A DNA stretch of 64,000 nucleotides, taken from contig CBDCJH010000002.1 in NCBI GenBank assembly GCA_965217775.1, forward strand, positions 864,001-928,000, in the 5' to 3' direction. The DNA is from Acidobacteriota bacterium (lineage in GTDB: Bacteria; Acidobacteriota; UBA6911; RPQK01; JAJDTT01). The notes under the pieces are model-generated. The model was not told the origin of the DNA. It worked only from the letters and a program-made list of their open reading frames with translations, and did no database searches. How positions within the stretch are numbered: the stretch's first letter is position 1; each line of letters opens with the position of its first letter. Of the stretch, positions 3,896 to 20,735 are shown piece after piece. The position numbers and the translations under genes are program-made.

Positions 3896-3987
3896 TAGGT
3901 AGGGGCGCCCCTTGTGGGCGCCCTCTTCGGTCCAAAGCGGAGCAAGACGTTAGGAAGGGGGACATTCTTGTCCCCCATTCTTCCTCC
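3896..3987. repeat. Two REP-like palindromes
   Basis: GTAG-GGGCGCCC-CTTGT-GGGCGCCC and GGGGGAC-ATTCTT-GTCCCCC hairpins in an intergenic region. Confidence 0.55.
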
Positions 3988-4238
3988 ACGTTCCATTCGA
4001 AATTCCAAGTAATCACGAAGACGCTGTTGAGTTTGCCGATTCTGGTTTCCAACGGGCCACTGGACACTCTCGGTCGCGGACTTTTCGTCTGAGAACTTTT
4101 CGAACCACTGAAGGATCGTGATTCCATTGCGGTTCGCTTTCCCGGGTGCGTTGTAGCTTGCTCTCTACATCATGAGAGGAGTGTACAAGTGAGGTGTTAT
4201 CTTGACAGGATTTCCTTATAATCTCCGATTTATATTTC

Positions 4239-6518
4239 CTACACCGGAACCATAAGGCCGTCTTGGAATCTCCGATTGGGGCCGTTGTGTACTGCCATCA
4301 AGAGTTCCTCTGCTAATTCGATCCCTTTTACCTTGTCAATATTCGCATTGCTAATGTCCCAGGACTTGGCTGGCTCAATACAGTTCTGGCAACCCAACGA
4401 GCACTTGCAGTTACGGGCAATCTCAACACCTTTCTTCAGAGCTACATGCCACACGCTAAACAGCTTTTTGGAAACACCGATTCCTCCTGGATAATTCTCG
4501 TAGCAATACGCGGCCAGTTCACTTCCCGTCCGAGAGTAGGTACTCGTGTCGAATCGGTCTGCCGGGATCACGAACATTGCGCCTACACGAATCATGTGCT
4601 CCAAAGCACCAATCCCATCAACGGCGACTACGCTTTGTGGGACATCAATCCAAAACGAGTGCAGGTTGTTCAGAAAAAGGGCGCCTTTGTCGCCCCCAGT
4701 CCTGAGAGTTTCACCAGAACGTTCATCCACTAGCTTAAAGCCTGTGAAGTTCATCACGATATTGAGAGAGCCGTAATAAACGCTAATGTCCCCATAACTG
4801 AAACCATCGAAAAAATCCGACCTCGAAAACACTGGGTAGAATCCTGGCTCGGTTCTCAGATATTGGTCAGTATCTTCAAGAACAATGGCTTGCTCTTCAT
4901 GGGACCTCACGTGATAACGTTGACCGAAGAAAGGGAAAATCGCTCCGATATAGGCCTCACGGAATCGGCGCATAGCAGAAATTTGGCCCAACTCCTGATT
5001 GTTTTTTCTTAGAGTGAAAGACTGCCCAATACCTCCGCGAAGGTTCAGGCGAGGCTGTGGCTTAAAACCCGTAGGCACTGTTCCTTGGTTCTTTCTGGCC
5101 GCACTGAAAAATGGACTGCCAAGTATAGTTTCTTCGGGAGGCAGTACCTGTCCGCCTGTTTCTTCCATAAGCGAGGGAATGTGTTTCGCGATTAGCTCTT
5201 CGTTGGCCGGATCGACCACCAGTTCGTCAAAGGGCTTTTCCAGAAAGGCTTGCAAATTCCCCACGAAGAAACGATCAATCGGGTCATTCATCGCGTAGAA
5301 CAGCACGAAAGCGTCCTTGTCCCAACCTCGTCCAGCCCGGCCAATCTGCTGCCAAGCGGACATTATGCTGGGGGGGAATCCGCCTAATATCACGCCGTCC
5401 AGACCGCCAACGTCCAGTCCTATTTCCAGAGCATTGGTCGTGAATACCACTCGAACCTGACCTGTTTTGATTCGCTCTTGGATTTCCTGGCGCCGCTCGG
5501 GTCTCAAGTCGGCATGGTATGCTGAAATCTGCTCAGGCTCCAAGCCACATTCCGAGGCTGTGCGCCTACAGTTGCTAAAAGCCGCCTCCAGAAATCGCTT
5601 TGTTGGGCAAAACACCAATACTTGTAAGCCTTCCACCAAAGCCGTTATTGAGGCTTGCTCAACTCGCAACCTGAGAATATCCCAATATTTGAAATCAGGG
5701 ATTTCAGGATCAATGAACACGAAATGCCGTTTGGGACGAAGCACATCTCTTGCCGATACCACCTCCGTGTCTCGTCCGGTGAGAGATTCGGCGTGTTCCT
5801 GCGGATTTGCACAAGTGGCGGTGGACAGAAACACCTGGGGGTGTGCTTTGATACGATTTAAATACAAAAAAAATCGCCGCAACAGAAGAGCCATGTTGCT
5901 GCCGAAAAACCCACGATATTCATGCATCTCGTCGATCACGACATACCGTAGATTACGCAGGTATCTAGCGCCGTCGGTATGCTTGTCCCACGACTCCCGA
6001 CTGCCCAGAAATGACATATTTAAGTATTCGGGATTAGTGAGTAGGATGTGGCAAGGATTCTGGCGAAGGCATGCCTTGATTTCTTCTCCCGTATCCCCAT
6101 CATAAGGCCAGGACTCGATGTCGAGTGGTTGGCAAATCTTCCTGATCTGCTCTCGCTGGTCGAAAGCCAACGCCTTCATCGGGTATATCATCATTGCGTG
6201 GGAGCCCGGGTTTTCCTTTAGAACATGAAGCATTGGTGCGGCGAATCCCAGTGTCTTTCCGCTGGCAGTCGGCGACTCCATCACCACATCAGCTCCGCTC
6301 AGGGACTTGGTGATTGCATCGGCCTGATGCTGGTATGGCTGTGATATGCCAATCTGAAGTAATGCACCGCGGACAGCAGGATTGAGTTGGGCTGGCCAAT
6401 CCTTCGCATAGTCGGGTTGAATTCGATCAACTACTTTTCGGTTTATCCTATCGTTGTCCCGTAGCGCGCCAAACTCCTTCAACTTTGACAGGAAGTCGTT
6501 AATGCTGACTCCACTCAT
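4239..6518 (-). CDS. DEAD/DEAH helicase with C-terminal DUF1998 Zn motif (YprA/MrfA/Hrq1-like)
   Basis: PYQHQ, PTASGKT, DEMH, SAT, QQIGRAGR, C-terminal CKCSLGCQNC; GGAGG RBS before ATG 6518; visibly lower GC than flanks. Confidence 0.9.
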   Translation of the reverse strand: MSGVSINDFLSKLKEFGALRDNDRINRKVVDRIQPDYAKDWPAQLNPAVRGALLQIGISQPYQHQADAITKSLSGADVVMESPTASGKTLGFAAPMLHVLKENPGSHAMMIYPMKALAFDQREQIRKICQPLDIESWPYDGDTGEEIKACLRQNPCHILLTNPEYLNMSFLGSRESWDKHTDGARYLRNLRYVVIDEMHEYRGFFGSNMALLLRRFFLYLNRIKAHPQVFLSTATCANPQEHAESLTGRDTEVVSARDVLRPKRHFVFIDPEIPDFKYWDILRLRVEQASITALVEGLQVLVFCPTKRFLEAAFSNCRRTASECGLEPEQISAYHADLRPERRQEIQERIKTGQVRVVFTTNALEIGLDVGGLDGVILGGFPPSIMSAWQQIGRAGRGWDKDAFVLFYAMNDPIDRFFVGNLQAFLEKPFDELVVDPANEELIAKHIPSLMEETGGQVLPPEETILGSPFFSAARKNQGTVPTGFKPQPRLNLRGGIGQSFTLRKNNQELGQISAMRRFREAYIGAIFPFFGQRYHVRSHEEQAIVLEDTDQYLRTEPGFYPVFSRSDFFDGFSYGDISVYYGSLNIVMNFTGFKLVDERSGETLRTGGDKGALFLNNLHSFWIDVPQSVVAVDGIGALEHMIRVGAMFVIPADRFDTSTYSRTGSELAAYCYENYPGGIGVSKKLFSVWHVALKKGVEIARNCKCSLGCQNCIEPAKSWDISNANIDKVKGIELAEELLMAVHNGPNRRFQDGLMVPV

Positions 6519-6699
6519 GTGAACCTCCATAGGTGAGGGCTGATTTCGCGTGCATGTGCGTCAAAAACTCGGTCCCGAGCTTACCAATTGTTACCTCTCT
6601 TGAACAGGAATCGAATTGACTCATAGTAAATCGGCCCGGAACGTATTCTTTGTCTCAAAAAAGAAATCTTCCCGAAATGAATAAAGAAAGGGCTCCAGG

Positions 6700-6896
6700 A
6701 AAGTGGCCTGGGGAGATATTGGAGATATGGGAACGGCGGGTTCTGGTGAAGGAGTTTGCGGCGCAATATCGGAGAGCAGGCATGAAGGAAAAGGGGAAGA
6801 TCCTGGACCGGTTTGTGAAGGCGACGAACTGCCGCCGCCACGACGCGTCTTGGCTCCTTCACAACCACGGTCGGCGGGGCAGGTTGAGGTCGGGAG
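6700..6896 (+). pseudogene. Transposase N-terminal remnant
   Basis: ERRVLVKEFAAQYRRAGMKEKGKILDRFVKATNCRRHDASWLLHNHG resembles N-termini of integrase-core IS transposases; it abuts a truncated CRISPR repeat. Confidence 0.55.
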
Positions 6897-8127
6897 GGCG
6901 GGGAACACAAGGGAATCGACAAGGGGCTGCGGAACCAGTGCGGTCCATCCCCGCGTAGGCGGGGAACACGCAGGCACAGGATCTTCCGGTTCTCCGAACA
7001 TCGGTCCATCCCCGCGTAGGCGGGGAACACTCCAGCTTCAGCTTCTTCAGCTTCTCCTTCAACGGTCCATCCCCGCGTAGGCGGGGAACACCGGATCCCC
7101 CCGCTTTGCGTTCTGGTCGCAGGCGGTCCATCCCCGCGTAGGCGGGGAACACTCCGTCGTCTCGTCCTGGGCCTGGCGCTGCAACGGTCCATCCCCGCGT
7201 AGGCGGGGAACACGACTCCCGCGAACAGGTGGAGCTGGGCGTATCCGGTCCATCCCCGCGTAGGCGGGGAACACCCTATAATCGGGGGTGGCGGGGGGGC
7301 GTAGGTCGGTCCATCCCCGCGTAGGCGGGGAACACGATATCGAGATCATCCTCCCCAGCGACCACACCGGTCCATCCCCGCGTAGGCGGGGAACACCGAT
7401 GTCGTCTTTGTCCACTCCGACGGTCCATCGGTCCATCCCCGCGTAGGCGGGGAACACTCAACTCGCTCGACCAGGATCTCAGCGACGACCGGTCCATCCC
7501 CGCGTAGGCGGGGAACACAACAGTCGTCCAAGACCTAGCTGAACTTCAACGGTCCATCCCCGCGTAGGCGGGGAACACTGCTGGGGGAATATCCAGTACA
7601 GCGTCGACGTCGGTCCATCCCCGCGTAGGCGGGGAACACGTGGAGAATCATCGTGACGAGGAACTGGTGCCCGGTCCATCCCCGCGTAGGCGGGGAACAC
7701 ATCCAGACCAGTGCATCTCGTAGCACCGGCGTCGGTCCATCCCCGCGTAGGCGGGGAACACGTTCTTTCCGTCGAGGTAGGTGACGCCGAACACGGTCCA
7801 TCCCCGCGTAGGCGGGGAACACGACTTCAGCGAGAGCGCCCGCGCCAATTCGTCCGGTCCATCCCCGCGTAGGCGGGGAACACCCTCTCCTCGCTCTCAG
7901 GTTCGCCACTCGATACGGTCCATCCCCGCGTAGGCGGGGAACACCCGTCCAGAAGAGCTCGCACAGCGTCCAGATCCGGTCCATCCCCGCGTAGGCGGGG
8001 AACACTGCAATCGGACAGATTCCTCCTGGTCAGGGAGCGGTCCATCCCCGCGTAGGCGGGGAACACTCCTCAGTTCAAAGTACTCACGAACAGTTCAACG
8101 GTCCATCCCCGCGTAGGCGGGGAACAC
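6897..8127 (-). CRISPR. Type I-E CRISPR array: 20 identical 29-bp repeats plus one truncated trailer repeat, 20 spacers
   Basis: Repeat GTGTTCCCCGCCTACGCGGGGATGGACCG (minus strand) starting at 6941, 7002 ... 8099; 32-bp spacers (one of 31 bp at 7519-7549); 12-bp partial repeat at 6897-6908. Confidence 0.99.
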
Positions 8128-8214
8128 TCTTGTTACAATCGTCTGATTCTAAAAGACTTGGTCCCAGTTAAAAAAGGTACCAACTCAGATGGGGTTATTT
8201 CGATCCGAACCACT
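8128..8214 (-). promoter_or_regulatory. CRISPR leader with IHF site
   Basis: AT-rich; AATCAGACGATTG (8148-8136) matches WATCARNNNNTTR, 8 bp from the first repeat; upstream TTGGTAC-T-tract motif. Confidence 0.8.
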
Positions 8215-9427
<1,213 letters not shown>

Positions 9428-9431
9428 AGCT

Positions 9432-10142
9432 TCAGGCCCTGCGGATCAGCATCAACCCGCACCCAAATGACTTCGCCCGGCCCAAACCCCTGGCGAGGGC
9501 TGTGACGAAAGTACCGGGCTCCGTTACGGTCAGGATCCCTTTCAAATCGATTAAACCCAACGTGATGCGGTTTCGTCCGCCACGGGGAATACGACGAACC
9601 GAGTAGTTTTCAACTAGTATCTGCTCTACGAGAAATCCTTTGCTCTTTCCTTGGGCAGCTAGCCAGTCGTTTGCGACTTGACCCGCGACCTCCATCCGTA
9701 GGCCGGCCCGTGCGCTGACCGGATTACTGACATTGGTATTCTGACTTCGTGCTCTGTGTAAAGCATCCATGACGAGATCGACGCGCCGGTTGGGCTTGCG
9801 GCCGTTCTTGTCTTGCAGCACTCGGCGGTCCTTAGTCGCGTTCGCACGTAGGATAAAAGACAGGCGGTCACCAGGGGCCAATACCGGTGCGAAATCCGTC
9901 GTTTCCAGGGGCTGAAACACACCTGATTGAGTGGGCGCTCGACGTGAGAGTATGAAAAAGCGCCCGCTCCCGTCGGCCCGCCAAAGGAAGTCGCGAACCT
10001 TGTCCTTGCCTGGAAACAGTGTCCAGATCAGGCGGTGATGCGCGTCGAGCGCCCGGTTGAGATCGGCTGGATCCAAAAGAGGGGCGAGTGCCGCCATTCC
10101 TGCGTCTCGATCCAAAACAGCACGGGTCAGATAAAGGTTCAT
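9432..10142 (-). CDS. cas6e: Cas6e/Cse3
   Basis: HHRLIWTLF, G-loop GLGRAKSFGCGLM. Confidence 0.95.
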   Translation of the reverse strand: MNLYLTRAVLDRDAGMAALAPLLDPADLNRALDAHHRLIWTLFPGKDKVRDFLWRADGSGRFFILSRRAPTQSGVFQPLETTDFAPVLAPGDRLSFILRANATKDRRVLQDKNGRKPNRRVDLVMDALHRARSQNTNVSNPVSARAGLRMEVAGQVANDWLAAQGKSKGFLVEQILVENYSVRRIPRGGRNRITLGLIDLKGILTVTEPGTFVTALARGLGRAKSFGCGLMLIRRA

Positions 10143-10834
10143 GTACTCGTATCGAGATCGAAGCGCCAGACTTCAGCTTGTCCAAAATGCCATTTGACTC
10201 GATCCACCGGTTCAACGGGTAGGATCTCAATTTGGTCCGGGCTTTCTCCAGGGAACGGGTCGCATGTCACGGCGCCCGGAGAAGTGCGACGGAGCCAGGA
10301 TGGGGGAGAGACAGAAGTTAACGCGGCCACCGGATTCGGCGCGTCTATAAGGACTGGTTTCATTGGTGCCGCCAGCGGACAGGATTTTCGCCCCAGATAG
10401 AGCACGAACATCGGCCGCCGTAAGGCCATTGCAAGTTTCCGCAGAGGCCACCGTCCATTCTCACGCCACACCACGACGGCAAAAGCCACGTCTGTGCGGT
10501 AGTCGCGTAGCGTGATGATTGTATTGGGAACGTGCTCAAGTTCCTCGAATGCGGCGCGGCGGCTGTCAGGGTGTTTGATCTTCGACGGAATCGTCTGGAC
10601 GGTGTGATAATCGCGCAGTGGCAAGCTCTCCGTCAGCGGGCGAACACCGACACGGTAGTTTAGTAATTCGGCCTGCCGGTCAGAATCTGTCCGTTCAATG
10701 CCCAATGCAGCGCCAAGTAATCCGAGAATTGCGGAACGTGATGGAACAATATCCGAGCCGCGTCGTTCCTGACCCGCATAGGTCCCGAAAGCTCCCATTG
10801 GGCCACACAGGATGAAAACGAGATGCTCATTCAT
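10139..10834 (-). CDS. cas5e: Cas5e/CasD
   Basis: PSRSAILGLLGAALG, RDYHTVQ, LYLGRKSCP. Confidence 0.95.
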   Translation of the reverse strand: MNEHLVFILCGPMGAFGTYAGQERRGSDIVPSRSAILGLLGAALGIERTDSDRQAELLNYRVGVRPLTESLPLRDYHTVQTIPSKIKHPDSRRAAFEELEHVPNTIITLRDYRTDVAFAVVVWRENGRWPLRKLAMALRRPMFVLYLGRKSCPLAAPMKPVLIDAPNPVAALTSVSPPSWLRRTSPGAVTCDPFPGESPDQIEILPVEPVDRVKWHFGQAEVWRFDLDTST

Positions 10835-11897
10835 CTGATATCTGCCCTGATGCAAAGGCCTTGATCGTGCGCAGGTCTCCGTTTCGGCTCTCTACGTTCA
10901 TGATTTTGAATTCTCTCGCTTGTGGACCGTATGCGTCGTCGATTTTCTCTGCCATCGTTTCGAGTGCCACGACGGACGCCCGCATCAGATCGCTTCCTGT
11001 TACCGGCTTGAGAAATGCAGCCGCAAGGCTGCGAGGTTGGATCTGTCCTGCCTCGGCACGGATATATCCCGCACGTACATGATGATTGTAGCTGTTGCGC
11101 TTTCCGGACGGGCTCGACGTCGCGAACGCTTCCACTGCTGCCTCTATGGCTTGGCGTGCCAGAGCGCGGTCACCGTTGAGGTTTCTTACCAAGAGGCTCG
11201 TGTCGATGCAGGTGTAGAGGTAATAAACGCCTGAACCAAATCCGGCATCTCCTACGAAGCCCGCGCCCATGTCCTCTGCGGGCCGGCTCAGATCATCGAC
11301 CGCAGTGTAGTAGTCATCCTCGACAACGGCTCTGTGGGTCGTGATCGCATGCGAAACTTGTACTGCCGCTTCGCGATTGAAATTGGGGTCGTCCGCGAGC
11401 ATCCGACCGAACATGGCCACATCAACAGCGCCGTCTGCGGTGCGCAGTATGACTTGGTTGAGTTTGTCCGGCTTGGCTTCTCCGGCTAGCATCCTGTTCG
11501 CCCAATCGATCGCTGCCGCGCGCTCTTCCGGCGAAACGAACGCAAGCTGGCGGATACGAATGTGGGCGGGATTTTTCTTGATCGCCGCCTTATCCAATTT
11601 GCCGAAAATGGCAGCGACGGTTTGAGCGATCTTGCGCGCCTTGCTTTCGGACGCGCCCTTTCCCAGGAGATGTTTGCAGACTTCTTCTCCGATGCGTCGG
11701 GTGCGTTCGCCCATATGTCCCTGTAGCTCCCTCTTCATCGCATCTGACAGGCGTGCTGCGCGTTTGATCGATTGTGAAGACAAACGGAGGCGCGGTATGC
11801 CGCCGTAGATAGCAGTTTTCGGGCGACCCTGATCGTCACGGTTCGGATTGGACGGTGGATACACAGTCAGGAAATGTAACTGAATGAAACAGGTCAT
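10827..11897 (-). CDS. cas7: Cas7/Cse4
   Basis: NPNRDDQGRPKTA, RLSSQSIKRAAR, VDVAMFGRM. Confidence 0.96.
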   Translation of the reverse strand: MTCFIQLHFLTVYPPSNPNRDDQGRPKTAIYGGIPRLRLSSQSIKRAARLSDAMKRELQGHMGERTRRIGEEVCKHLLGKGASESKARKIAQTVAAIFGKLDKAAIKKNPAHIRIRQLAFVSPEERAAAIDWANRMLAGEAKPDKLNQVILRTADGAVDVAMFGRMLADDPNFNREAAVQVSHAITTHRAVVEDDYYTAVDDLSRPAEDMGAGFVGDAGFGSGVYYLYTCIDTSLLVRNLNGDRALARQAIEAAVEAFATSSPSGKRNSYNHHVRAGYIRAEAGQIQPRSLAAAFLKPVTGSDLMRASVVALETMAEKIDDAYGPQAREFKIMNVESRNGDLRTIKAFASGQISDE

Positions 11898-12421
11898 GAG
11901 TCGATCTCCAGTGAAATCCGTTTGGGGGCTGCGTCAGTGGCACCGAAATACTGGAAGCACCATGCCGTGCGGGTACCCTCGTTCCAGTGATAGAGGTCGT
12001 TGCCCAGAGCACTGACATTGACAGGAGTCCGTCGAACGATGGACATGGCCCTGCGTAGCGGGCGGATGAGATCCGCCTGAGTGGTCGTTTGGATGAGGTT
12101 CTGAAAGCGCATTTCGCTCAATGCACGGGGGCTGTTCCTGGATTCGCGCCGGCCCAAGACCGTAGCGAGTCTTGGGCGTCCGTCTTCCGTGACGCGAGCC
12201 AGCACGATGGCGACGAGCGCCAAGCGATCTGCCCGCGGGTGATAACCAGCCGACCGAAGCCGCCCGTTGAGGTCATGCGTAGCCTCGACGGTTAGCGCCT
12301 CCGCGGGGGTGGCGCAGCGACGAAATCGGGCGCGGGTCATACGTGCAGTACCGTCATCTGCATTGAACGTATGCCACCACCAGTCTGCGCAGACCATACC
12401 CGGGGATTTCTTGTCCCTCAT
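11894..12421 (-). CDS. cse2: Cse2/Cas11
   Basis: LSEMRFQNL; position between cse1 and cas7. Confidence 0.9.
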   Translation of the reverse strand: MRDKKSPGMVCADWWWHTFNADDGTARMTRARFRRCATPAEALTVEATHDLNGRLRSAGYHPRADRLALVAIVLARVTEDGRPRLATVLGRRESRNSPRALSEMRFQNLIQTTTQADLIRPLRRAMSIVRRTPVNVSALGNDLYHWNEGTRTAWCFQYFGATDAAPKRISLEIDS

Positions 12422-13902
12422 TTGCCGGTCTCCGTTACTTTCGCGTCCAGATTAAGCGTTCGTCGGATGGGGCCGGTGGTAAACGCAGACAGCAGCTTCT
12501 TCCGTGCGTTCACGATTTTCTCAATGTCAGCCGCGCTACGATCGACCAGTGATGGAACGGCATGGAGGTCGAACAACTCTAGTGCTGTCCGCCGCAGGGT
12601 ATTCAGCCACTGCTCTTCAACCTCCGTTCCGTTTGGCATCGGTGCCGCCTTCGTAGCGTTGACAAAGTCGGACTCAGTTGTGGCAAAAAAGGTTTCCGAA
12701 ACAGTCTCAACGGCGTTGCCCTTCATTCCGACCGACGTTCTCAATAGCCTTTTCAATGTGCTGGCTGCGGCGTTGGCGGCCTCAACCAGCGCGCCCACGA
12801 GGAGTTCCGTATTCTGGTCCGATGGAAAAGTCGGGTATACGTGCAGGCTGAAATCCCTGGCTTGCATATTCTTCGTCGCCCAGCCTCCAGCGAAAACCTC
12901 GGTGGCCGGTGGGTTGTAAAGAGAATTGAACCGATGGATCGATGTTGCGACTACACGGGTCTCGTTGCTTTCTCCAAAGGTGAGTCCCAGCCAGTTGCGG
13001 TAGCTCACCTTGCCTGGCTGCGCAAGTTGTGGAAGGAATTCATCACCGACTTTTTTTCGATAATAGGGCGACAGCGGATGTTTCCAACCGTGGTAGTTGG
13101 TTCCGTGTCGCTTCTGCACGACTCCGGTCATCTTGTTCGCCTTGAACAGTAGCCGCAGCCGTCTGGGCATTCCGAAGAATGCTTCGGCGGAGTGGGACAT
13201 ACCTGGAGTTGCGAGTTCGCCTTTTGATGATGTCCGGGTTTTGCGTAGCCACGGCAATGCTTCGCTCGCTCGCTCGGCCGGGAGCGGCGCTCCTTCCGGT
13301 ACGTTGCACCAGACCATCCGCCAAAGTGCATGCGCGTCTGCGTCGACGGGTTGCACCAACGTCACCAAGGGGCCGCCACCACGCATCGAGGTGCGATTTC
13401 CCGCTCCGCCGGTGGGTGCGAAGTCTTGAAGTGCGTAGAGCGCCATTGCCGCTAACGGGAGGGGTAAGTTGGTGTATCGATCACGCTTGACCGTCAAGTC
13501 GGCATTTTTTTTCTTTGTGAGTTCTCCTGCACCGTCGATGAACAGCATGTCCGGTGGTTTGATCGCACTCGGTTTCGCCCCGACCTCAAATGGTTCCATG
13601 TCCTGCAGGAAGCGGGGACCATCTCCGGTCAGCTCGAAGTGCGGCGTGAAGGGTTTGAGGGCGCAACGTAAGCGGCCCGGATCGGGCGTTTCGTAGCGCT
13701 CATGCCAGTCGGCGTCGTGACACGGGGGATCGGCGAGGAACACCAATCCGATTAGCAGTTCGAGGCAGGCAAGGTTCAGATCGCCCCGGGGCCAGTCGAG
13801 GCGGACGACCCCTTCTCTCGCAATCTCGTCTGGCCGAAGCGTGATCCGCCCTCCATCCCGGATTGCGGGGATCCATCGGTCGCTGATGAGATTAAGGGGC
13901 AT
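12418..13902 (-). CDS. cse1: Cse1/Cas8e
   Basis: NLISDRWIP, FAPTGGAGNRTSMRGGGP, HPLSPY. Confidence 0.93.
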   Translation of the reverse strand: MPLNLISDRWIPAIRDGGRITLRPDEIAREGVVRLDWPRGDLNLACLELLIGLVFLADPPCHDADWHERYETPDPGRLRCALKPFTPHFELTGDGPRFLQDMEPFEVGAKPSAIKPPDMLFIDGAGELTKKKNADLTVKRDRYTNLPLPLAAMALYALQDFAPTGGAGNRTSMRGGGPLVTLVQPVDADAHALWRMVWCNVPEGAPLPAERASEALPWLRKTRTSSKGELATPGMSHSAEAFFGMPRRLRLLFKANKMTGVVQKRHGTNYHGWKHPLSPYYRKKVGDEFLPQLAQPGKVSYRNWLGLTFGESNETRVVATSIHRFNSLYNPPATEVFAGGWATKNMQARDFSLHVYPTFPSDQNTELLVGALVEAANAAASTLKRLLRTSVGMKGNAVETVSETFFATTESDFVNATKAAPMPNGTEVEEQWLNTLRRTALELFDLHAVPSLVDRSAADIEKIVNARKKLLSAFTTGPIRRTLNLDAKVTETGK

Positions 13903-14143
13903 CTTGGCCTACGGCTTCTGTATAAAAGAAGTCCGTTCATTCGGACGCAATTACTATCGGAATACGTCTCGCTGCTGGGCGATACATACTACGGAGTGCG
14001 CGTAGAACCACCATCGATCTCCGCGATAGTCGGGTTGTTTTCGACACGTCACAGTCAGAGATCCCAATCTAAGGAGACGACCATACAGGGATGCTCTGTC
14101 AACTTTCACGACATGGTGAGTAGATTCACACGACCGGGACATT

Positions 14144-16678
14144 TCACGTCGAAAACATCAGTCCCCATTCGGGATCGTATCGCACTCCTTCGCAGACCAG
14201 GCCATCCTCGCCTACGGGGCAGAGGACGAGGTGATCGCGCTTCCCCTTTGACCACGCGGCCTTGATCTCGGCGATCTCAGGCTCCGATTGATCGGGCAAC
14301 TCGACGGGGCGGAGGCGTCGGCCAGCGCAGCGCACTTCCGAAAGTACCCAGGCGCTCACCGATGTCTCCGCATCGCACCAGGGTGACAGCCGGTGGGCCT
14401 TTCGGCGGGCCAGGACCAACGTTTTCTCTTCTTCGCCAAGGCGAGTAGGAAACTTTTCCTCGCTCCAGACCCTGCCCTTTGTGCCTTTGAGGTAGCCGTC
14501 GTCCGGGATTACCACGTTCTGTTGAGCTATTGCGGACTCAGCGAGCGCCCTACCCTCGGCGTCAAAGAGCGCGTTGGTGAGTGGCTCCGGTACTTCCAGC
14601 GGATTTGAGCCGTGAACGGACTCGATCAGAGTCCTCAGTTTTTCGGGCGAGTTGATCGTGCCGGCGTCGAACACGGACCGAGCGGTTCGCCACTGATGGT
14701 CGTGCCGGTAGACGTAGGCACCTTTGCAGAGCACCCGATTGAGCCAGCGAGCATCTGTCACCCTGTCTGGATCGGGAGAAAGGATTACCAGCTCTGGACC
14801 AGGCACCGGGCGGGCTGTAATGGGGCGCCGGTCCATGTGACGCCAGAGCCGACCTGTACGCTGGATCAACGCGCCGATCGGCGCGAGGTCTGACACCACC
14901 AGATCGAAGTCCAGGTCCAGCGACGTCTCGACAACCTGTGTGGCTACCAGCACTCGACCCCCACGACCGATCCCGTCCCGCCCGAATCGGGCCATCGCCG
15001 CGGCCTCGTGTCGGAGACGGTCTCCAAGGACGAAGCGGGCGTGTAACAAGCTGGCCGGGCAGCCTTGATCATGGAGACTCTTGACCGCGGTGATAGCGTC
15101 ATCGACGGCGTTACGAACCCATAAGCAGGCCGCGCCTGCCTCGGCGCCTTTCACCAGCATTTCGATCGCGACCTCCTCGGAGTCGATCCGCGTGACGCGA
15201 ACGGAGCGACAGGTAGTCGGTACGGGCTCAACAGAGCGAGTTCGGATTTCCGTACCGACAAGGGCGAGCGCCGGGTAGTCTTTGTGGCTCAAGTGGACCG
15301 CCGGCCGACCCATTCCGCTGCGGAATGCCTGAGCGTACGCTTGTCTCATCCTCATCGGTAAAGTCGCCGTCATGACGATCGCAGAACCGCCGCTCATCGC
15401 CTGCATCTTGAGCAGCATTTCGAGTTGGCACTGCATATACGGGTCGTAGGTGTGCGCTTCGTCCACGATTAGAATTCGGTCCACCAATCCAAACAATCTC
15501 AACGTGGCAAATCGCGTCGGCAGGATGCCCATGAGCGCTTGATCAATGGTTCCCACTCCGATCTCCGCTAGCAGCGAACGACGGCGGTCATCTGCGAGCC
15601 ACCGCGTGCAACCGGCCTCAGGGGTCGCGTCGTCTCCGGCACCGATAAGAGCGCGGAAACCTTCATGCAGCGCTGCTCGACCATGAGCCAGAGTCAACGA
15701 GGGAGGAGCCTCGAAGAGGCGCGCCGCCACTTTAGTCATCCGCTCAAACATGGCATTTGCCGTGGCCATCGTTGGTAGCGCGAAGAAAATGCCGCGCGCG
15801 CGCCCCAAAGCAATCATCCGATGCGCAAGGATCAGCGCGGCTTCGGTTTTTCCGGAGCCTGTCGTGTCCTCGATTAGAGCGAGGACAGGACCGTCAGGAA
15901 GAATGACGCTTTCTGTAGCGGACTGCATAGGCCGCAGATCCGGTAGGTGCGTCAGAGTCTGGGCGTTAATCCCCAAAGACACCGAGACGGTGTCCAGTCC
16001 GGCCTTCGCCACCGCCTTTTCGGCTTGGGCGCGCGCGCACTCCAGATAGTCTGCCGGGACGATGTCTGACGAGGCGGGAGGGAACCAATCCGTGTTCGAC
16101 CCCACCCAGTCCGATGCAACGGTAAGCCCGGAAAGCGCCCAACTCAGTCTCCGTGCGCCACGCTGGTCCATTCCCGCCAGTGATCCGCCCGGCAGTAGTT
16201 TGAGGAGGAGCGACGTCCACACCGATGCGGCTTTCGTCGCCGCATATCCGATGGCGTTCCTACGTCTTTGTATCTTCCGCCGATTGTTCGATCGATCCGG
16301 TGGGCCACCGTGGTGCCCGGACACGGCAGCATACAATTCACTTCTCGTGTAGCCGTCGCCACCGAGTGCCCGGCCAATGATCGGGTCGAGCACCGTTGTC
16401 AGTAGCAGGTCCGACAAAGTCCAGTGGCGATACGCGCTTGGACCTTGGTCACGAAGCATCGCGCGGAATGTCTGGGATAGTTTGCCCACGTCGTGCAGCG
16501 CAACCAATACAACCAATCCGCGTCGCTGGGAGGATGACAACCTGGAAAAAGCCCGGTGACCGTCGATCAGACGCTCGGCGCAGGCGGCGACATCCAGCAT
16601 ATGCCAGATGGCGGGATGTTCGCGGGGCTTGCTCTTACCTGGCCAGTCGCGGGCCAGCGAAAAAGAGTCTTCGATCAT
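14144..16678 (-). CDS. cas3: Cas3 HD nuclease-helicase
   Basis: HMLDV...LHDVGK HD domain, TGSGKT, DEAH, QRTGRLWRH. Confidence 0.97.
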   Translation of the reverse strand: MIEDSFSLARDWPGKSKPREHPAIWHMLDVAACAERLIDGHRAFSRLSSSQRRGLVVLVALHDVGKLSQTFRAMLRDQGPSAYRHWTLSDLLLTTVLDPIIGRALGGDGYTRSELYAAVSGHHGGPPDRSNNRRKIQRRRNAIGYAATKAASVWTSLLLKLLPGGSLAGMDQRGARRLSWALSGLTVASDWVGSNTDWFPPASSDIVPADYLECARAQAEKAVAKAGLDTVSVSLGINAQTLTHLPDLRPMQSATESVILPDGPVLALIEDTTGSGKTEAALILAHRMIALGRARGIFFALPTMATANAMFERMTKVAARLFEAPPSLTLAHGRAALHEGFRALIGAGDDATPEAGCTRWLADDRRRSLLAEIGVGTIDQALMGILPTRFATLRLFGLVDRILIVDEAHTYDPYMQCQLEMLLKMQAMSGGSAIVMTATLPMRMRQAYAQAFRSGMGRPAVHLSHKDYPALALVGTEIRTRSVEPVPTTCRSVRVTRIDSEEVAIEMLVKGAEAGAACLWVRNAVDDAITAVKSLHDQGCPASLLHARFVLGDRLRHEAAAMARFGRDGIGRGGRVLVATQVVETSLDLDFDLVVSDLAPIGALIQRTGRLWRHMDRRPITARPVPGPELVILSPDPDRVTDARWLNRVLCKGAYVYRHDHQWRTARSVFDAGTINSPEKLRTLIESVHGSNPLEVPEPLTNALFDAEGRALAESAIAQQNVVIPDDGYLKGTKGRVWSEEKFPTRLGEEEKTLVLARRKAHRLSPWCDAETSVSAWVLSEVRCAGRRLRPVELPDQSEPEIAEIKAAWSKGKRDHLVLCPVGEDGLVCEGVRYDPEWGLMFST

Positions 16679-16825
16679 TTCGGGTCTTCCTGATCAGGCG
16701 GACGCTCTCCATCCTCAGTCGTTCGATTCGTTTCCGAGGCCGATGGGTGAGGTTGGCGATAGTGCTTTTGCCTGAAAGGGAATCAACACTTGGTATAGAT
16801 TTCACAGGGCAGGAACGCCGGAACT

Positions 16826-17824
16826 TCAGGTCAGCATGCGGAGGAACATCGCAACGCGTTCCAACTTCTCGACCTCGTTTGGGTCCAGGCCGTCAGGTGC
16901 AAAATGCATCACCTCGTTTCGCATCTCCCTCACTTGGCCCAAATTGTGTGTGAAGGTGGCGCGGTCCACTCGCAATCCCAACCTGTCCCATCGATCCGGG
17001 TTTTCAAGGAGTCGGCAATAGGTGCCGAAGTTGAGGTCCCAGGAGCCCTCTATCGGTGTGCTCGGATCATCGGACGCCTCCGCCATCTCTTCGAGAGTGA
17101 ATTTGCTCACGAGATTACGCAGATGAAGCTCGATTTCGCCTATGACCAGGAACGGTTGGGCAAGCTGCGCGAACTGTCTGGCGAAATCGCTTGCCGTCAC
17201 GATTCCTGAGATGGTCCGGTCGACGTCTCGCACCAGAACGTATCCATGTTCCCAGATGTCCTTGATCGCATTGAACAAGGGTGCGTTGATGGCTATTTCC
17301 CGATGAGGCTCCATCCAGTGGCGGACCTCGTCGCTCTGGCATCCTAGCGTGAACGCCGTTCCGATCGACCGCCAACTGACCACGCCCTTCACGTCGCGTT
17401 CGTTTGCCATCACGGGGAGCTGCGAGAAATCCTCGATCAGCATGATCGTCGTCGCCTTGGCGAGCGGGTTGTTCGGCCGCACGCTGGTCAGTTTGCAGCG
17501 GGCTGTCGGAAGTACGCGGATACGCACGGTCGGATCGACCGGCTCTTTCCGGACGTCCGTCGCCTCCATGTCCAGCTCGATCGAGATGTCGCCGTCGATA
17601 TGCTCGCGCTCGAAATCGGGGACCGTGCGTAGATTCAGTTCCGCGAATTTGGTCCTGATCCGCCGGATAAGCCTGTCGCTTCGGCGCGCGTAATTGAACC
17701 AACCCAGAAGCTCGCGGACCGTCGTGGGTTCCGCAACAGGCATAGCCCCACTATCCCGTTCGGCTTTCATCCTGTCTGCGAGTTTTTGAAGTTTCTCGTC
17801 AGCTTGATAGGGCATCTCTCTCAT
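16826..17824 (-). CDS. CBS-pair plus HEPN (RxxxxH) protein
   Basis: CBS motifs FSQLPVM..VKGVVSW and VLVRD..ISGIVTASD; C-terminal helical domain with RNEVMH. Confidence 0.8.
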   Translation of the reverse strand: MREMPYQADEKLQKLADRMKAERDSGAMPVAEPTTVRELLGWFNYARRSDRLIRRIRTKFAELNLRTVPDFEREHIDGDISIELDMEATDVRKEPVDPTVRIRVLPTARCKLTSVRPNNPLAKATTIMLIEDFSQLPVMANERDVKGVVSWRSIGTAFTLGCQSDEVRHWMEPHREIAINAPLFNAIKDIWEHGYVLVRDVDRTISGIVTASDFARQFAQLAQPFLVIGEIELHLRNLVSKFTLEEMAEASDDPSTPIEGSWDLNFGTYCRLLENPDRWDRLGLRVDRATFTHNLGQVREMRNEVMHFAPDGLDPNEVEKLERVAMFLRMLT

Positions 17825-17860
17825 TCCACAAATGTTGTTGAATCGGGCCGGACCTTCAAA

Positions 17861-19540
17861 TCAAAACCCCGGAGGTCGCCGGGAGTGATGGTCGGTGACC
17901 TGCTGGTAGGCTTGGCCCAGGGCCAGGATCCGGGACTCGTCGAAGAGTCGCCCGGTCACGGTGATGCTGGTGGGACGGCCCTCGGGGTCGAACCCATTGG
18001 GCAGGCAGAGGCTGGGGAGCCCCGTCAGGTTGGTGAGCCGCACATTCTGGCTGAAGCTGGGGGCCAGGTAGGCGTCGATCCCGGACATCAGGCGGGCCAT
18101 GTCCTCCATGAGCAATGAGCGCAGCCGGTTGGCCTGAATGTACTCGACGGCCGGAACGAAGCGGGCCTGACGGAACATGTTGGGCCAGTTGTTCTCCTCC
18201 TGTTCCCTCAACAGGTCGTCCTGGTTGTTCCGCGTGAACTCGTCGAAGGCCGCCGCCGCCTCGGTGTAGAGAATCAGCTCCGGCGCGAGAGGACGCTTCG
18301 GCAGCTCGATGGGGACCAGGTCGACCCCCAGGGATCGGAAGACCTCCAGGCTCCGGGCATCGTTCTCCTTGGCGGCTGCTTCCTCCTGTTCCTGAAAGGG
18401 GCTCTCGGCGTAGCCTACCCGGAGCCCCTCCAAATTGTCTCCGACGGGCCACACGAAGGGACGATCGCAGGTGGTCCGGTCGTGGGGATCGAGTCCATGG
18501 ATGGCGGCGAACACCAGGGCGCAGTCTTCGGCGCTGCGGCAGATGGGACCGAGCTTGTCCAGGCTCCAGCTCAGGGTCATGGCGCCGTGACGGCTGACCC
18601 GTCCGAAAGTCGGTCTCAGGCCCGTGACTCCGCAGGTGGCGGAAGGATAGACGATGGACCCCATGGTCTCGGATCCGATGGAGAAACCCACCAGGCCGGT
18701 GGCCGTCGCCGCGGCCGAACCGGCTGATGACCCCTTCGAGCCTTCGTCCAGCTTCCAAGGGTTGCGGGTCTGCCCGCCGTACCAGACGTCGACTGCGGCC
18801 AGAGCCCCCAGGCTGAGCTTGGCGATCAGCACCGCGCCCGCGTCCTCCAGCATGCGGACCACGGTGGCGTCCAGGTCCAGGGTCTGGTCGCGATGGGAGG
18901 TGGCTCCCCAGGTGGTTCGATATCCTCGGACCGCCAACAGATCCTTGGCGCCCCACGGGATTCCGTGGAGCGGCCCCCGGTAGCGTCCACGAGCCAGCTC
19001 CCGGTCGGCGCGGCGCGCCTGTTCCAGGGCCAACTCCTCGGTGTAGGAGATGACGCATTCGAGCTTTTCGGCGTATTTCCTGAGGCGCTCCAGATAGAGG
19101 CGGGTCAGTTCCACGGAGCTCACTTTCCGGGCCTTGACCGCCGGCGCCAGACGGGAGAGGGGCCAATAGGCCAGATCCTCCGGACGGCCGGGAACGTCAG
19201 GGATCGGAGACGAGAGTTTGGCCGCTGTCCCGGCGGGCGGTTGCGGCACGCTCCCGCGGGGAATGGGATCGAACTGGATGGCGGGAGGCACCGAATTGTC
19301 CAGAGAGAACTCCCGGAGGTTTCCGAAGAACTCCAGGCTCTGATTGACCCGCTTGAGCATCTGCTCCCGTTCGGGGAGCGTGAAATCCAGGCCGATGACC
19401 TGTTGGGCCGCTTGCAGAATTTCCGCGGTGATTCTCATCTCCGTGTCCACGGGAGACTCCTCCCGGCAGGAAGCCAGAACCAGGCCGCTTCCCGAAAGGG
19501 AGGTGAGCGCCTGCCTGCGCGTCCACTTGGAGTCACTCAC
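17861..19540 (-). CDS. Amidase signature family enzyme (Tat-type signal)
   Basis: TRRQAL signal, HGIPWGAKD, GSSAGS, GSETMGSI. Confidence 0.9.
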   Translation of the reverse strand: MSDSKWTRRQALTSLSGSGLVLASCREESPVDTEMRITAEILQAAQQVIGLDFTLPEREQMLKRVNQSLEFFGNLREFSLDNSVPPAIQFDPIPRGSVPQPPAGTAAKLSSPIPDVPGRPEDLAYWPLSRLAPAVKARKVSSVELTRLYLERLRKYAEKLECVISYTEELALEQARRADRELARGRYRGPLHGIPWGAKDLLAVRGYRTTWGATSHRDQTLDLDATVVRMLEDAGAVLIAKLSLGALAAVDVWYGGQTRNPWKLDEGSKGSSAGSAAATATGLVGFSIGSETMGSIVYPSATCGVTGLRPTFGRVSRHGAMTLSWSLDKLGPICRSAEDCALVFAAIHGLDPHDRTTCDRPFVWPVGDNLEGLRVGYAESPFQEQEEAAAKENDARSLEVFRSLGVDLVPIELPKRPLAPELILYTEAAAAFDEFTRNNQDDLLREQEENNWPNMFRQARFVPAVEYIQANRLRSLLMEDMARLMSGIDAYLAPSFSQNVRLTNLTGLPSLCLPNGFDPEGRPTSITVTGRLFDESRILALGQAYQQVTDHHSRRPPGF

Positions 19541-19628
19541 GATGAAAACCGGGAGTTGGAAGAATCAGGAGCATTCCGGCGGATGAGCGTGAATCGGAGC
19601 TTTCTCATCCCGGGATTGCGCACTGGGA

Positions 19629-20735
19629 TCACGGACCCGTCGTTTCCAGGGCCAGCCGGCCGCAGCTCTCCAACGCCAGCAGCGGGTAGCAGGTTCCGCT
19701 GTAGGTGATGAAATGGAATTTGTCCGTGTTGAGGGATCGGGTCCACCAACGGCCCGACTCCCGCTGGTTGGACAGGAGCCAGTCGATGGCTCGCTGAATT
19801 CGCGGATCGTCGGCTGGGACCCCGGCTCGTCTCAGGACCAGGACGCAGAGGCCGGTCTGGTGGCCGTCACTGGGCGGATTATCGAAATCGTCTTCGGCTC
19901 GGAGCTTCTCGGCGCGGTTTCCCCGGCCCCAGGTCTCGGGAGTGGCGAAAGTGCGGATCGACCAGCCCCCGTCCGCGCGTTGATGCCGCCAGACCATCTC
20001 GACCAGTTCCTGCTTCTTCTCATCCTCCAGAAGTCCGGGCCAGCGGGTGGAGACCCAGAGCAGGAGGAGGCGCCCGTAGTCATGGGGCGCCCGGGTCCTC
20101 ACGTATTCCCTCGTCTTCCGCACCGCTTCCCGGCCGCCGTTGGCGGCCATCCATCCGGGAGCCGCCGCCATGGCCGTCGCCGCCACGGTGGCCGATTGAT
20201 ACTTGCTGGACTCGAACGGTGGCCAGGTGTCGACGTTGTGCCAACCACCCTCCGGGTCCTGGAGATCGAGCATCAGGTTCAAGGCCTCCCGGGTCTCCGG
20301 GGAAAGCTCGCCAGTGACGTGTGCGTCCCATTCGGCCAGACCCTGGGCCGCATAGGCCACCTGGGTCGGATAGACGCTGGAACGAAGTTTCCGGGACTCC
20401 ATGGCCCGCAGTTCGTCGAGTTCCTCGATGATGAACTTCCGAAGCTCTGCCGGCGGCTGACCCAGGGTTCCGGTCAGGGCCGGACGCGTCACGAAATAGG
20501 TGCCATTGGTGTGACAGGAGATGCACTCCCGCTTCCGGGTCCAGGCCAGAGCCCCCTCCTCCATGTAAGCTACGGCTCGGCTGGGAGAGAATTGGTCCCG
20601 GATCGGCTCCTGGGCCGACGCGGGAGGGATCAAGATCTGCTCCCATTCATATTGCGGCTTGGGCGCTTGGCCGTCCTTTTCCGCCGCGGCCGTTCCGAGG
20701 AAGAAGATGGCGAGGAGGATTCTTGCCGGTTTCAT
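19629..20735 (-). CDS. Squalene-hopene cyclase/prenyltransferase-repeat secreted protein
   Basis: QW motifs QDPEGGW, QRADGGW, QRESGRW; CISCH. Confidence 0.75.
   Translation of the reverse strand: MKPARILLAIFFLGTAAAEKDGQAPKPQYEWEQILIPPASAQEPIRDQFSPSRAVAYMEEGALAWTRKRECISCHTNGTYFVTRPALTGTLGQPPAELRKFIIEELDELRAMESRKLRSSVYPTQVAYAAQGLAEWDAHVTGELSPETREALNLMLDLQDPEGGWHNVDTWPPFESSKYQSATVAATAMAAAPGWMAANGGREAVRKTREYVRTRAPHDYGRLLLLWVSTRWPGLLEDEKKQELVEMVWRHQRADGGWSIRTFATPETWGRGNRAEKLRAEDDFDNPPSDGHQTGLCVLVLRRAGVPADDPRIQRAIDWLLSNQRESGRWWTRSLNTDKFHFITYSGTCYPLLALESCGRLALETTGP

Follow-up and report, generated by a model that had tools for sequence, protein, structure and literature searches.

A DS-11-family CBS-HEPN gene beside a type I-E CRISPR-Cas cassette in an Acidobacteriota genome, probably a stand-alone anti-phage system

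Introduction

The window described here is a stretch of 64,000 nucleotides from an Acidobacteriota bacterium (assembly GCA_965217775.1, contig CBDCJH010000002.1, positions 864,001 to 928,000). On its minus strand lies a gene for a 332-amino-acid protein with an N-terminal domain, a CBS pair and a HEPN-like C-terminal domain, and the next minus-strand open reading frame (ORF) downstream is the cas3 gene of a type I-E CRISPR-Cas system. The gene is very probably (roughly 85%) a member of the DS-11 family, that is, a stand-alone, single-protein anti-phage system which is independent of the neighbouring I-E system. At the domain level, this reading is already published and curated as DS-11, and little of it is new here. 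The position next to cas3 is incidental, being a by-product of the insertion of a cassette of about 12.7 kb that is without a counterpart at the same site in the congeners. The initial annotation of this DNA had described a gene that lies 147 bp upstream of cas3 in the same orientation, and had proposed an ancillary effector of the I-E system or, as a fallback, an independent defence gene in the same island. The gene, its orientation and the gap were all found as described, on a strand (minus) that had been left unstated; between the two proposals, the fallback is the better supported, the same locus being present without CRISPR-Cas in eight other genomes of the genus.

Assignment to the DS-11 family

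DS-11 came from DefensePredictor (DeWeirdt, Mahoney and Laub, Science 2026, PMC13092281; preprint January 2025). In the available text of the paper, it is described as a one-protein CBS + HEPN anti-phage system validated in E. coli, and it is stated that no characterised defence system had CBS domains before it. The AlphaFold3 model reported there is a dimer with ATP, with an interface predicted template modelling score (ipTM) of 0.59 for the protomers and 0.88 for ATP, and defence was abolished by the mutation Y157A in the CBS domain and by mutations of the HEPN catalytic residues (PMC13092281). A literature search for CBS-HEPN proteins gave nothing beyond the DefensePredictor preprint and paper.

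The protein encoded in the window matches the profile NF053863 ('DS11_antiphage'), an NCBIfam equivalog model named 'CBS domain-containing anti-phage protein', with 336.7 bits against a cut-off of 260 (E 1.1e-100). The match spans residues 37-328 and covers profile positions 1-305 of 305, and nothing else in the 6.43-Mb genome exceeds the cut-off. It was proposed in the initial annotation that a CBS adenosyl sensor and a HEPN RxxxxH RNase are joined here in a defence effector, and this agrees with the DS-11 family as it is described in the text available (PMC13092281). The likeness extends to the combination of a CBS pair with HEPN in a single gene, to the HEPN Rx4H motif, to an aromatic residue at the position aligned with Y157, and to a homodimer, which is predicted for the window protein as it is in the published AlphaFold3 model (PMC13092281). 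The window copy differs from the validated one in that it comes from Acidobacteriota and not from E. coli. Its close relatives begin at the methionine that corresponds to residue 4 and have 329 amino acids.

Domains, fold and conserved residues

The three-part layout first read from the letters, with a CBS pair between an N-terminal domain and a helical domain at the C-terminus, was confirmed. In a Pfam scan of the whole protein, CBS was the only family (PF00571, E 1.7e-8, two stretches); no HEPN family was found at E <= 10, and there was no CARF family among the Pfam and NCBIfam matches at the same threshold. The full-length AlphaFold2 model, built on 30 homologues, had a mean predicted local distance difference test score (pLDDT) of 90.6. 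When it was searched against the PDB with Foldseek, the best matches were CBS pairs, with about 122 aligned columns and a probability of 1.00; they included 2p9m (E 8.8e-8) and 7msu, the CBS pair of CorB with Mg-ATP (E 2.2e-7). Ligand-bound CBS pairs were thus found among the best matches, namely CorB with Mg-ATP and DarB with AMP. Within the segment GIVTASD (G207-D213), which we take to fit the G-h-h-T/S-x-x-D/N ribose-binding motif of CBS domains, G207 and D213 are invariant among the 30 aligned homologues.

The C-terminal domain (residues 212-332), modelled alone on 36 homologues, is predicted to be all-helical (pLDDT 90.3, predicted template modelling score 0.83). An exhaustive structural alignment of this domain with VIA-align against 48,161 chains gave HEPN proteins at the top and all through the list. 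The leading matches were 2hsb (the HEPN protein AF_0298, Z 8.1), Csm6 (6tug, Z 7.3) and 1wwp (Z 7.3), followed by Roquin (Z 7.2), further Csm6 chains (4rgp, Z 6.8; 8jbc, Z 5.9; another at 5.5), AbiF (8vz6, Z 6.7), the sacsin HEPN domain (3o10, Z 6.0), AbiA (Z 6.0), the HEPN toxin 7ae2 (Z 5.8), 5yep (Z 5.5) and Swt1 (4pqz, Z 5.4); RnlA, LsoA and Cas13b are also in the list. Because HEPN proteins are enriched among the structural matches and the RxxxxH motif is present, the fold is called HEPN with moderate confidence. Of the two folds proposed initially, the CBS pair was therefore firmly recovered (Foldseek E 8.8e-8) and HEPN moderately so (VIA-align Z 8.1, nothing by Foldseek at E <= 0.001).

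The RNEVMH motif (R302-H307), the predicted catalytic Rx4H of HEPN, is intact, as had been noted at the outset. R302, N303, M306, H307 and F308 are invariant in 30/30 aligned homologues (47-87% identity), and in a second set of 36 C-terminal domains the R, N, H and F are again invariant (36/36), with M nearly so. The block E230-I-E232...R236 in the first helix of the domain is likewise invariant in 30/30 homologues. A strict regular expression for the C-terminal domain matched 64 of 80 homologous loci, a count that bears nothing on loss of the motif.

The N-terminal domain consists, in the AlphaFold2 model, of helices at residues 6-24, 36-42 and 50-62 and strands at 32-35, 65-68 and 79-84, and the order of these elements suggests that it may be winged-helix-like. 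R48, L65 and D70 are invariant in 30/30 homologues, and the LRTVPDFE block is conserved. The domain has no Pfam match, and a protein-atlas search with residues 1-100 gave no usable match. It goes unmentioned in the text available of the DS-11 paper (PMC13092281). This part of the protein could be the one that senses the trigger or binds nucleic acid.

Comparison with a homologue from E. coli

A tblastn search of a plasmid collection gave 10 records, 3 of which covered at least 80% of the query. One record, NZ_CP141089.1, is an E. coli chromosome record and encodes WP_000257686.1, a 365-amino-acid 'CBS domain-containing protein' whose gene lies amid an integrase and insertion sequence (IS) fragments and not near CRISPR. 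Residue 157 of WP_000257686.1, the tyrosine in HDYSQLPVM, is matched in the alignment by F133 of the window protein (EDFSQLPVM). As a tyrosine falls at residue 157, WP_000257686.1 appears from its sequence to carry the numbering of the published work (PMC13092281) and may be the tested DS-11; Y157 is taken there to be the aromatic residue of CBS1 in contact with adenine. The window protein differs from it in having Phe for Tyr at this position and in the linker that joins the N-terminal domain to the CBS pair, which is shorter.

This substitution is the point from which it could be argued that the gene is an inactive relic, its sequence conserved and its nuclease or sensor no longer working, for the residue that is Phe here is the Tyr mutated in the available account of DS-11 (PMC13092281). 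Such a relic is highly improbable. F and Y alternate at this column throughout the family, so that an aromatic side chain is retained. The frame is intact, all family-invariant residues are present, and the identities to the seven closest relatives, 83-97% in protein against 85-95% in DNA, suggest purifying selection.

Predicted homodimer

A homodimer predicted with two ATP molecules had an ipSAE of 0.47 (0.44, 0.47 and 0.51 in the individual runs), as against 0.00 for the best control. The mark used for ipSAE is reached by 20 of 30 solved homodimers and by 1 of 23 solved monomers. The runs agreed in at least 73% of their contacts, and the partner pLDDT was at least 79. The predicted interface is symmetric and is formed by the CBS helices 122-159 and 183-194, by the helix that opens the HEPN domain (210-234) and by the residues on either side of H307, 306 and 308; such an interface would be what a composite HEPN active site needs. 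CBS-pair dimers are common among solved structures, and the score may for this reason partly reflect likeness to them, so that the prediction supports pairing without showing it.

Insertion of the CRISPR-Cas cassette beside DS-11

The CRISPR-Cas locus in the window is a complete type I-E system, and the coordinates of its parts are collected in Table 1 with those of the other features. The reverse complement of the array repeat has the usual I-E form, which indicates that array and cas genes share their reading strand. Beyond the array, at about 6880-6908, there is a degenerate terminal repeat. The 763-amino-acid helicase sits inside the cassette just past the array, and it may be a further defence or repair gene carried along with the I-E system.

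Table 1 Features of the window discussed in the text
Feature	Position	Strand	Basis
DS-11 family gene (N-terminal domain, CBS pair, HEPN), 332 aa	16826-17824	-	ORF; NCBIfam NF053863
N-terminal domain, residues ~1-95	17540-17824	-	AlphaFold2 secondary structure
CBS pair, residues ~100-215, including F133 and G207-D213 (GIVTASD)	17180-17527	-	Pfam, Foldseek
HEPN-like helical domain, residues 216-332	16829-17179	-	Domain model; VIA-align
RNEVMH motif (R302-H307), predicted HEPN catalytic Rx4H	16904-16921	-	Conservation
Amidase gene, conserved upstream neighbour of DS-11 in the genus	17861-19540	-	Pfam Amidase 5.3e-77
Spacer from DS-11 stop to cas3 start, 147 bp	16679-16825	-	blastn synteny and sequence
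Cassette of ~12.7 kb, without counterpart at the same site in congeners	4077-16788		cas3 to cas2, CRISPR array, helicase
cas3 (type I-E), 844 aa	14144-16678	-	Pfam Cas3_HD 2.5e-25, Cas3-like_C_2 1.9e-29, DEAD 3.2e-9
cse1	12418-13902	-	Pfam
cse2	11894-12421	-	Pfam
cas7 (Cas_CT1975)	10827-11897	-	Pfam
cas5	10139-10855	-	Pfam
cas6e	9432-10142	-	Pfam
cas1	8489-9427	-	Pfam
Probable cas2, 97 aa	8215-8508	-	Position and size only
CRISPR array, ~20 repeats of 29 nt, 32-nt spacers, 61-nt period	6941-8127	-	
DEAD/DEAH helicase with C-terminal MrfA Zn-binding (MZB) domain, 763 aa	4239-6530	-	Pfam DEAD 1.6e-31, Helicase_C 7e-17, MZB 5.4e-10
GC hairpin GGGGGACA-AGAA-TGTCCCCC, likely original DS-11 terminator	3957-3976	-	Compared by eye with L008

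The seven nearest genomic loci (L005-L011), all from Acidobacteriota, encode proteins of 83-97% identity to the window protein; at the DNA level, the identity to the window across the locus is 85-95%. In 7/7 of them, the amidase gene lies directly upstream of DS-11 (tblastn, 91-96% identity). By blastn, the close relatives (L006-L010 listed) are collinear with the window from about 28000 to about 16790, and then again from about 4076 downward. The point at which they leave off, about 16790, is 36 bp past the DS-11 stop and is the right edge of the cassette. L008 is an empty site, where the two flanks are 12 bp apart, and within about 50 bp after the DS-11 stop it has a GC hairpin, GGGGGACA-GGAA-TGTCCCCC, whose counterpart in the window is the one in Table 1. 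It follows from the collinearity of the flanks and from the empty site in L008 that the window has an insertion of about 12.7 kb between DS-11 and its presumed terminator.

Two of the close relatives have something else at this site. L006 keeps a remnant of 98 bp (11222-11319) which is 89% identical to window positions 16598-16695; it takes in the start of cas3 together with the bases immediately before that start, and its coding part corresponds to the initial 27-28 amino acids of Cas3, so that the cassette was once present in the L006 lineage and was later lost. L005, the relative of 97% identity, has a different insert of 8.8 kb (11036-19875) with transposases of the IS1595 and DDE_3 types, helix-turn-helix proteins and an ORF of 1357 amino acids (13223-17296) without a Pfam match. 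As the same site holds CRISPR-Cas in the window and a different insert in L005, insertions have recurred just downstream of DS-11, and the site is a hotspot.

A simple consensus scan for promoters and terminators covered positions 16400-18100; it gave no promoter-like and one terminator-like site, not above shuffled sequences. The single terminator-like hairpin, at 17867-17884 on the minus strand, falls within the final codons of the amidase gene, some 40 bp ahead of where DS-11 starts. Its place suggests that transcription of DS-11 begins separately, very near the 3' end of the amidase gene or within it. In the 147-bp spacer neither a terminator-like nor a promoter-like site was found, so that read-through from DS-11 into cas3 is possible. 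DS-11 and cas3 may then form one transcription unit, and the two systems could have become functionally coupled, though real coupling is in our view exceedingly improbable; as an example of it, the CBS pair might read the shift in adenine nucleotides caused by the ATP-driven Cas3 and start a backup abortive response when interference is overwhelmed. If this were true, a type I system would here have newly acquired, in a single lineage, a second arm that is 'type III-like'.

Linkage to cas genes in the genus and in distant homologues

The wider proposal, that the protein is an ancillary I-E effector, with its CBS-HEPN RNase switched by an adenine-nucleotide signal from Cascade-Cas3 activity as an abortive-infection arm, draws on the co-orientation with cas3 at a distance of 147 bp and on the possibility of a shared transcript, the spacer having no terminator-like site and the presumed terminator having been displaced by about 12.7 kb. 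It also draws on the ligand of DS-11, which according to the available text is still to be identified (PMC13092281). Linkage across homologues makes this role very unlikely. DS-11 over the profile cut-off was found in 8/8 other genomes of the genus, in 0/6 of the sister genus and in 0/26 of the other families of the order sampled. All eight keep DS-11 beside the same amidase and without the cassette, and the adjacency to the cas3 cassette is thus seen in 1/9 genomes of the genus. Homologues of the window Cas3 do occur in 3/8 of the other genomes, none of them beside DS-11 save the stub in L006; two are megabases away from DS-11, and one is on another contig of a fragmented assembly.

Among distant relatives, the best 80 of 482 were surveyed with flanks of up to 10 kb, using the window Cas3, Cse1, Cse2, Cas7, Cas5, Cas6e and Cas1 as tblastn queries (E <= 1e-3). 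No I-E cas gene was found within 10 kb of DS-11 in any of the 80 loci, only the stub in L006. Recurrent linkage of homologues to I-E cas genes, as expected of an accessory gene of such a system, was thus found in 0/80 loci and in 0/8 congeners, and the gating by Cas3 products that had been proposed from the sequence fails on these counts.

A Pfam search for Cas1, whatever the CRISPR type, was made in the genomes of 40 of the 80 loci, which are chromosome-level or large-contig records. Cas1 was present in 28/40 of these DS-11-bearing genomes, and none was found in 12/40. Among 35 single-chromosome records, 25 had Cas1 on that chromosome, and the nearest Cas1 to DS-11 in those 25 was at 70 kb, followed by 97, 99, 123 and 152 kb; the distances are linear and leave out three multi-contig genomes with Cas1. 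The survey of homologues for cas3 linkage that had been suggested as a check accordingly came out negative. DS-11 moreover defends when cloned alone, as a one-protein system, according to the text available (PMC13092281).

The flanks of the distant homologues were tallied by Pfam for two ORFs on each side of DS-11 at 69 distant loci (256 ORFs); the tally omits L040, L056, L065, L076, the seven close relatives and ORFs of more than 1100 amino acids. As in a single-gene system, no recurrent partner was found, the commonest family being Aminotran_3 (4+1) with 5 of 256 ORFs, and there was no Cas family among the 25 commonest listed of 85 and of 82 families. The flanking genes are mostly metabolic, with scattered McrBC/AAA_5, DndB, Uma2, GmrSD and IS elements. 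Nine large neighbours, scanned singly, comprised two McrB-like ATPases, a type IIG methylase, a TrwC relaxase, an SMC-like ATPase, an acetyl-CoA-carboxylase-like protein, a trypsin-RCC1 protein, a leucine-rich repeat (LRR) protein and one without a match.

In L061, L071 and L080 (about 11070-13530, plus strand), a co-oriented ORF of about 810 amino acids directly follows DS-11. Those of L061 and L071 are McrB-like AAA_5 proteins; the one of L080 is pooled in the tally, where three AAA_5 members were counted, and McrBC families are nearby. L071 is from a Thermoanaerobaculia genome, L061 is labelled Holophagales and L080 'Candidatus Multivorans'. This arrangement may be lineage synteny or a small defence island.

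Defence or housekeeping, and points against the assignment

It could also be held that the protein is a housekeeping RNase, responsive to nucleotides, which tunes RNA stability to the energy state and has no part in defence in this genus. The gene occupies the same locus beside the amidase in 8/8 other genomes of the genus, distant homologues have mostly metabolic neighbours, and ligand-regulated RNA stability has been suggested for CBS-HEPN fusions in the text available (PMC3710099). A housekeeping role is nevertheless unlikely, since the protein passes the equivalog cut-off of a family that takes its name from an anti-phage protein already validated. The gene is also patchy beyond the genus (0/6, 0/26), yet has relatives of 40-53% identity in Chloroflexota, Proteobacteria, Verrucomicrobiota and others, a distribution typical of defence genes that move horizontally. 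Some homologues adjoin McrBC, DndB, GmrSD, a type IIG methylase, a relaxase or IS elements, and an insertion hotspot lies just downstream of the gene.

Several observations count against the assignment to a stand-alone DS-11 system. It is unusual for a defence gene to keep one position next to metabolic genes in a whole genus, as this one does, and the lack of a terminator-like site before cas3 leaves room for co-transcription. The identity to WP_000257686.1 is only 37% (over 98% of the query). With regard to the fold, the HEPN Z-scores are middling (best 8.1), and such values can arise by chance in helical domains; when the PDB was searched by Foldseek with the C-terminal model, nothing matched at E <= 0.001, the Csm6 (8jbc, 5fsh) and MntA-HepT rows appearing only at E 1.4-3.5, and a profile of the C-terminal domain searched against the sequences of solved structures gave nothing meaningful (best E 0.14, NalD). 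PADLOC-DB v2 (2023) gave 0 families at E <= 10, this library being older than DS-11. The flank tally, finally, was made with a crude ORF caller and lists the 25 commonest of the families counted.

Relation to known HEPN systems

CBS-HEPN fusions were noted in 2013 by Anantharaman, Makarova, Burroughs, Koonin and Aravind, and ligand-regulated RNA cleavage was suggested for them in the text available (PMC3710099). The window protein shares with these fusions the joining of HEPN to nucleotide-sensing CBS domains; the examples given there, alr3009 and a Pelobacter propionicus protein, may also carry HD domains (PMC3710099).

Csm6 and Csx1, the CARF-HEPN effectors of type III systems, are similar in that a ligand-sensing domain is fused to a dimeric HEPN RNase, and the Csm6 chains 6tug, 4rgp and 8jbc are among the structural matches of the window C-terminal domain. 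They differ in the sensor, which in the window protein is a CBS pair and not CARF, and in their context, as the homologues of the window protein are without conserved cas linkage and the adjoining operon is of type I-E (no search was aimed at cas10). HepT/MntA and the minimal HEPN toxins share the HEPN fold and Rx4H, with 7ae2, 5yep and 1wwp among the matches; unlike HepT, the window protein is without an MNT antitoxin partner, and it is presumably held in check by its own CBS pair.

Proposed mechanism

Beyond a CBS-gated dimeric HEPN RNase, the mechanism is one that we infer. The protein is predicted here to form a symmetric homodimer through the CBS pair and the first HEPN helix. The CBS pair would bind an adenine-containing ligand, as the phenotype of the E. 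coli mutant and the predicted ATP pose suggest. By analogy with other HEPN proteins, the ligand status during infection would switch on the paired HEPN Rx4H sites; RNA would then be cleaved and phage replication stopped, and the growth of the cell itself would probably suffer. The gene would work independently of the neighbouring I-E system, that system being the cassette which, in this lineage, was inserted between DS-11 and its presumed terminator, and the sole plausible consequence of the insertion would be accidental read-through from DS-11 into cas3.

Significance

CBS-HEPN proteins have been on record since 2013, DS-11 was validated in 2025-2026, and the window protein is already named by a curated NCBIfam model. 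The present case shows that adjacency to cas3 can come from the insertion of a cassette at a hotspot and not from a functional module. The copies found throughout this genus of Acidobacteriota, with F at the position of Y157 and an N-terminal domain that may be winged-helix-like, are comparative material for finding the ligand and the trigger of DS-11.

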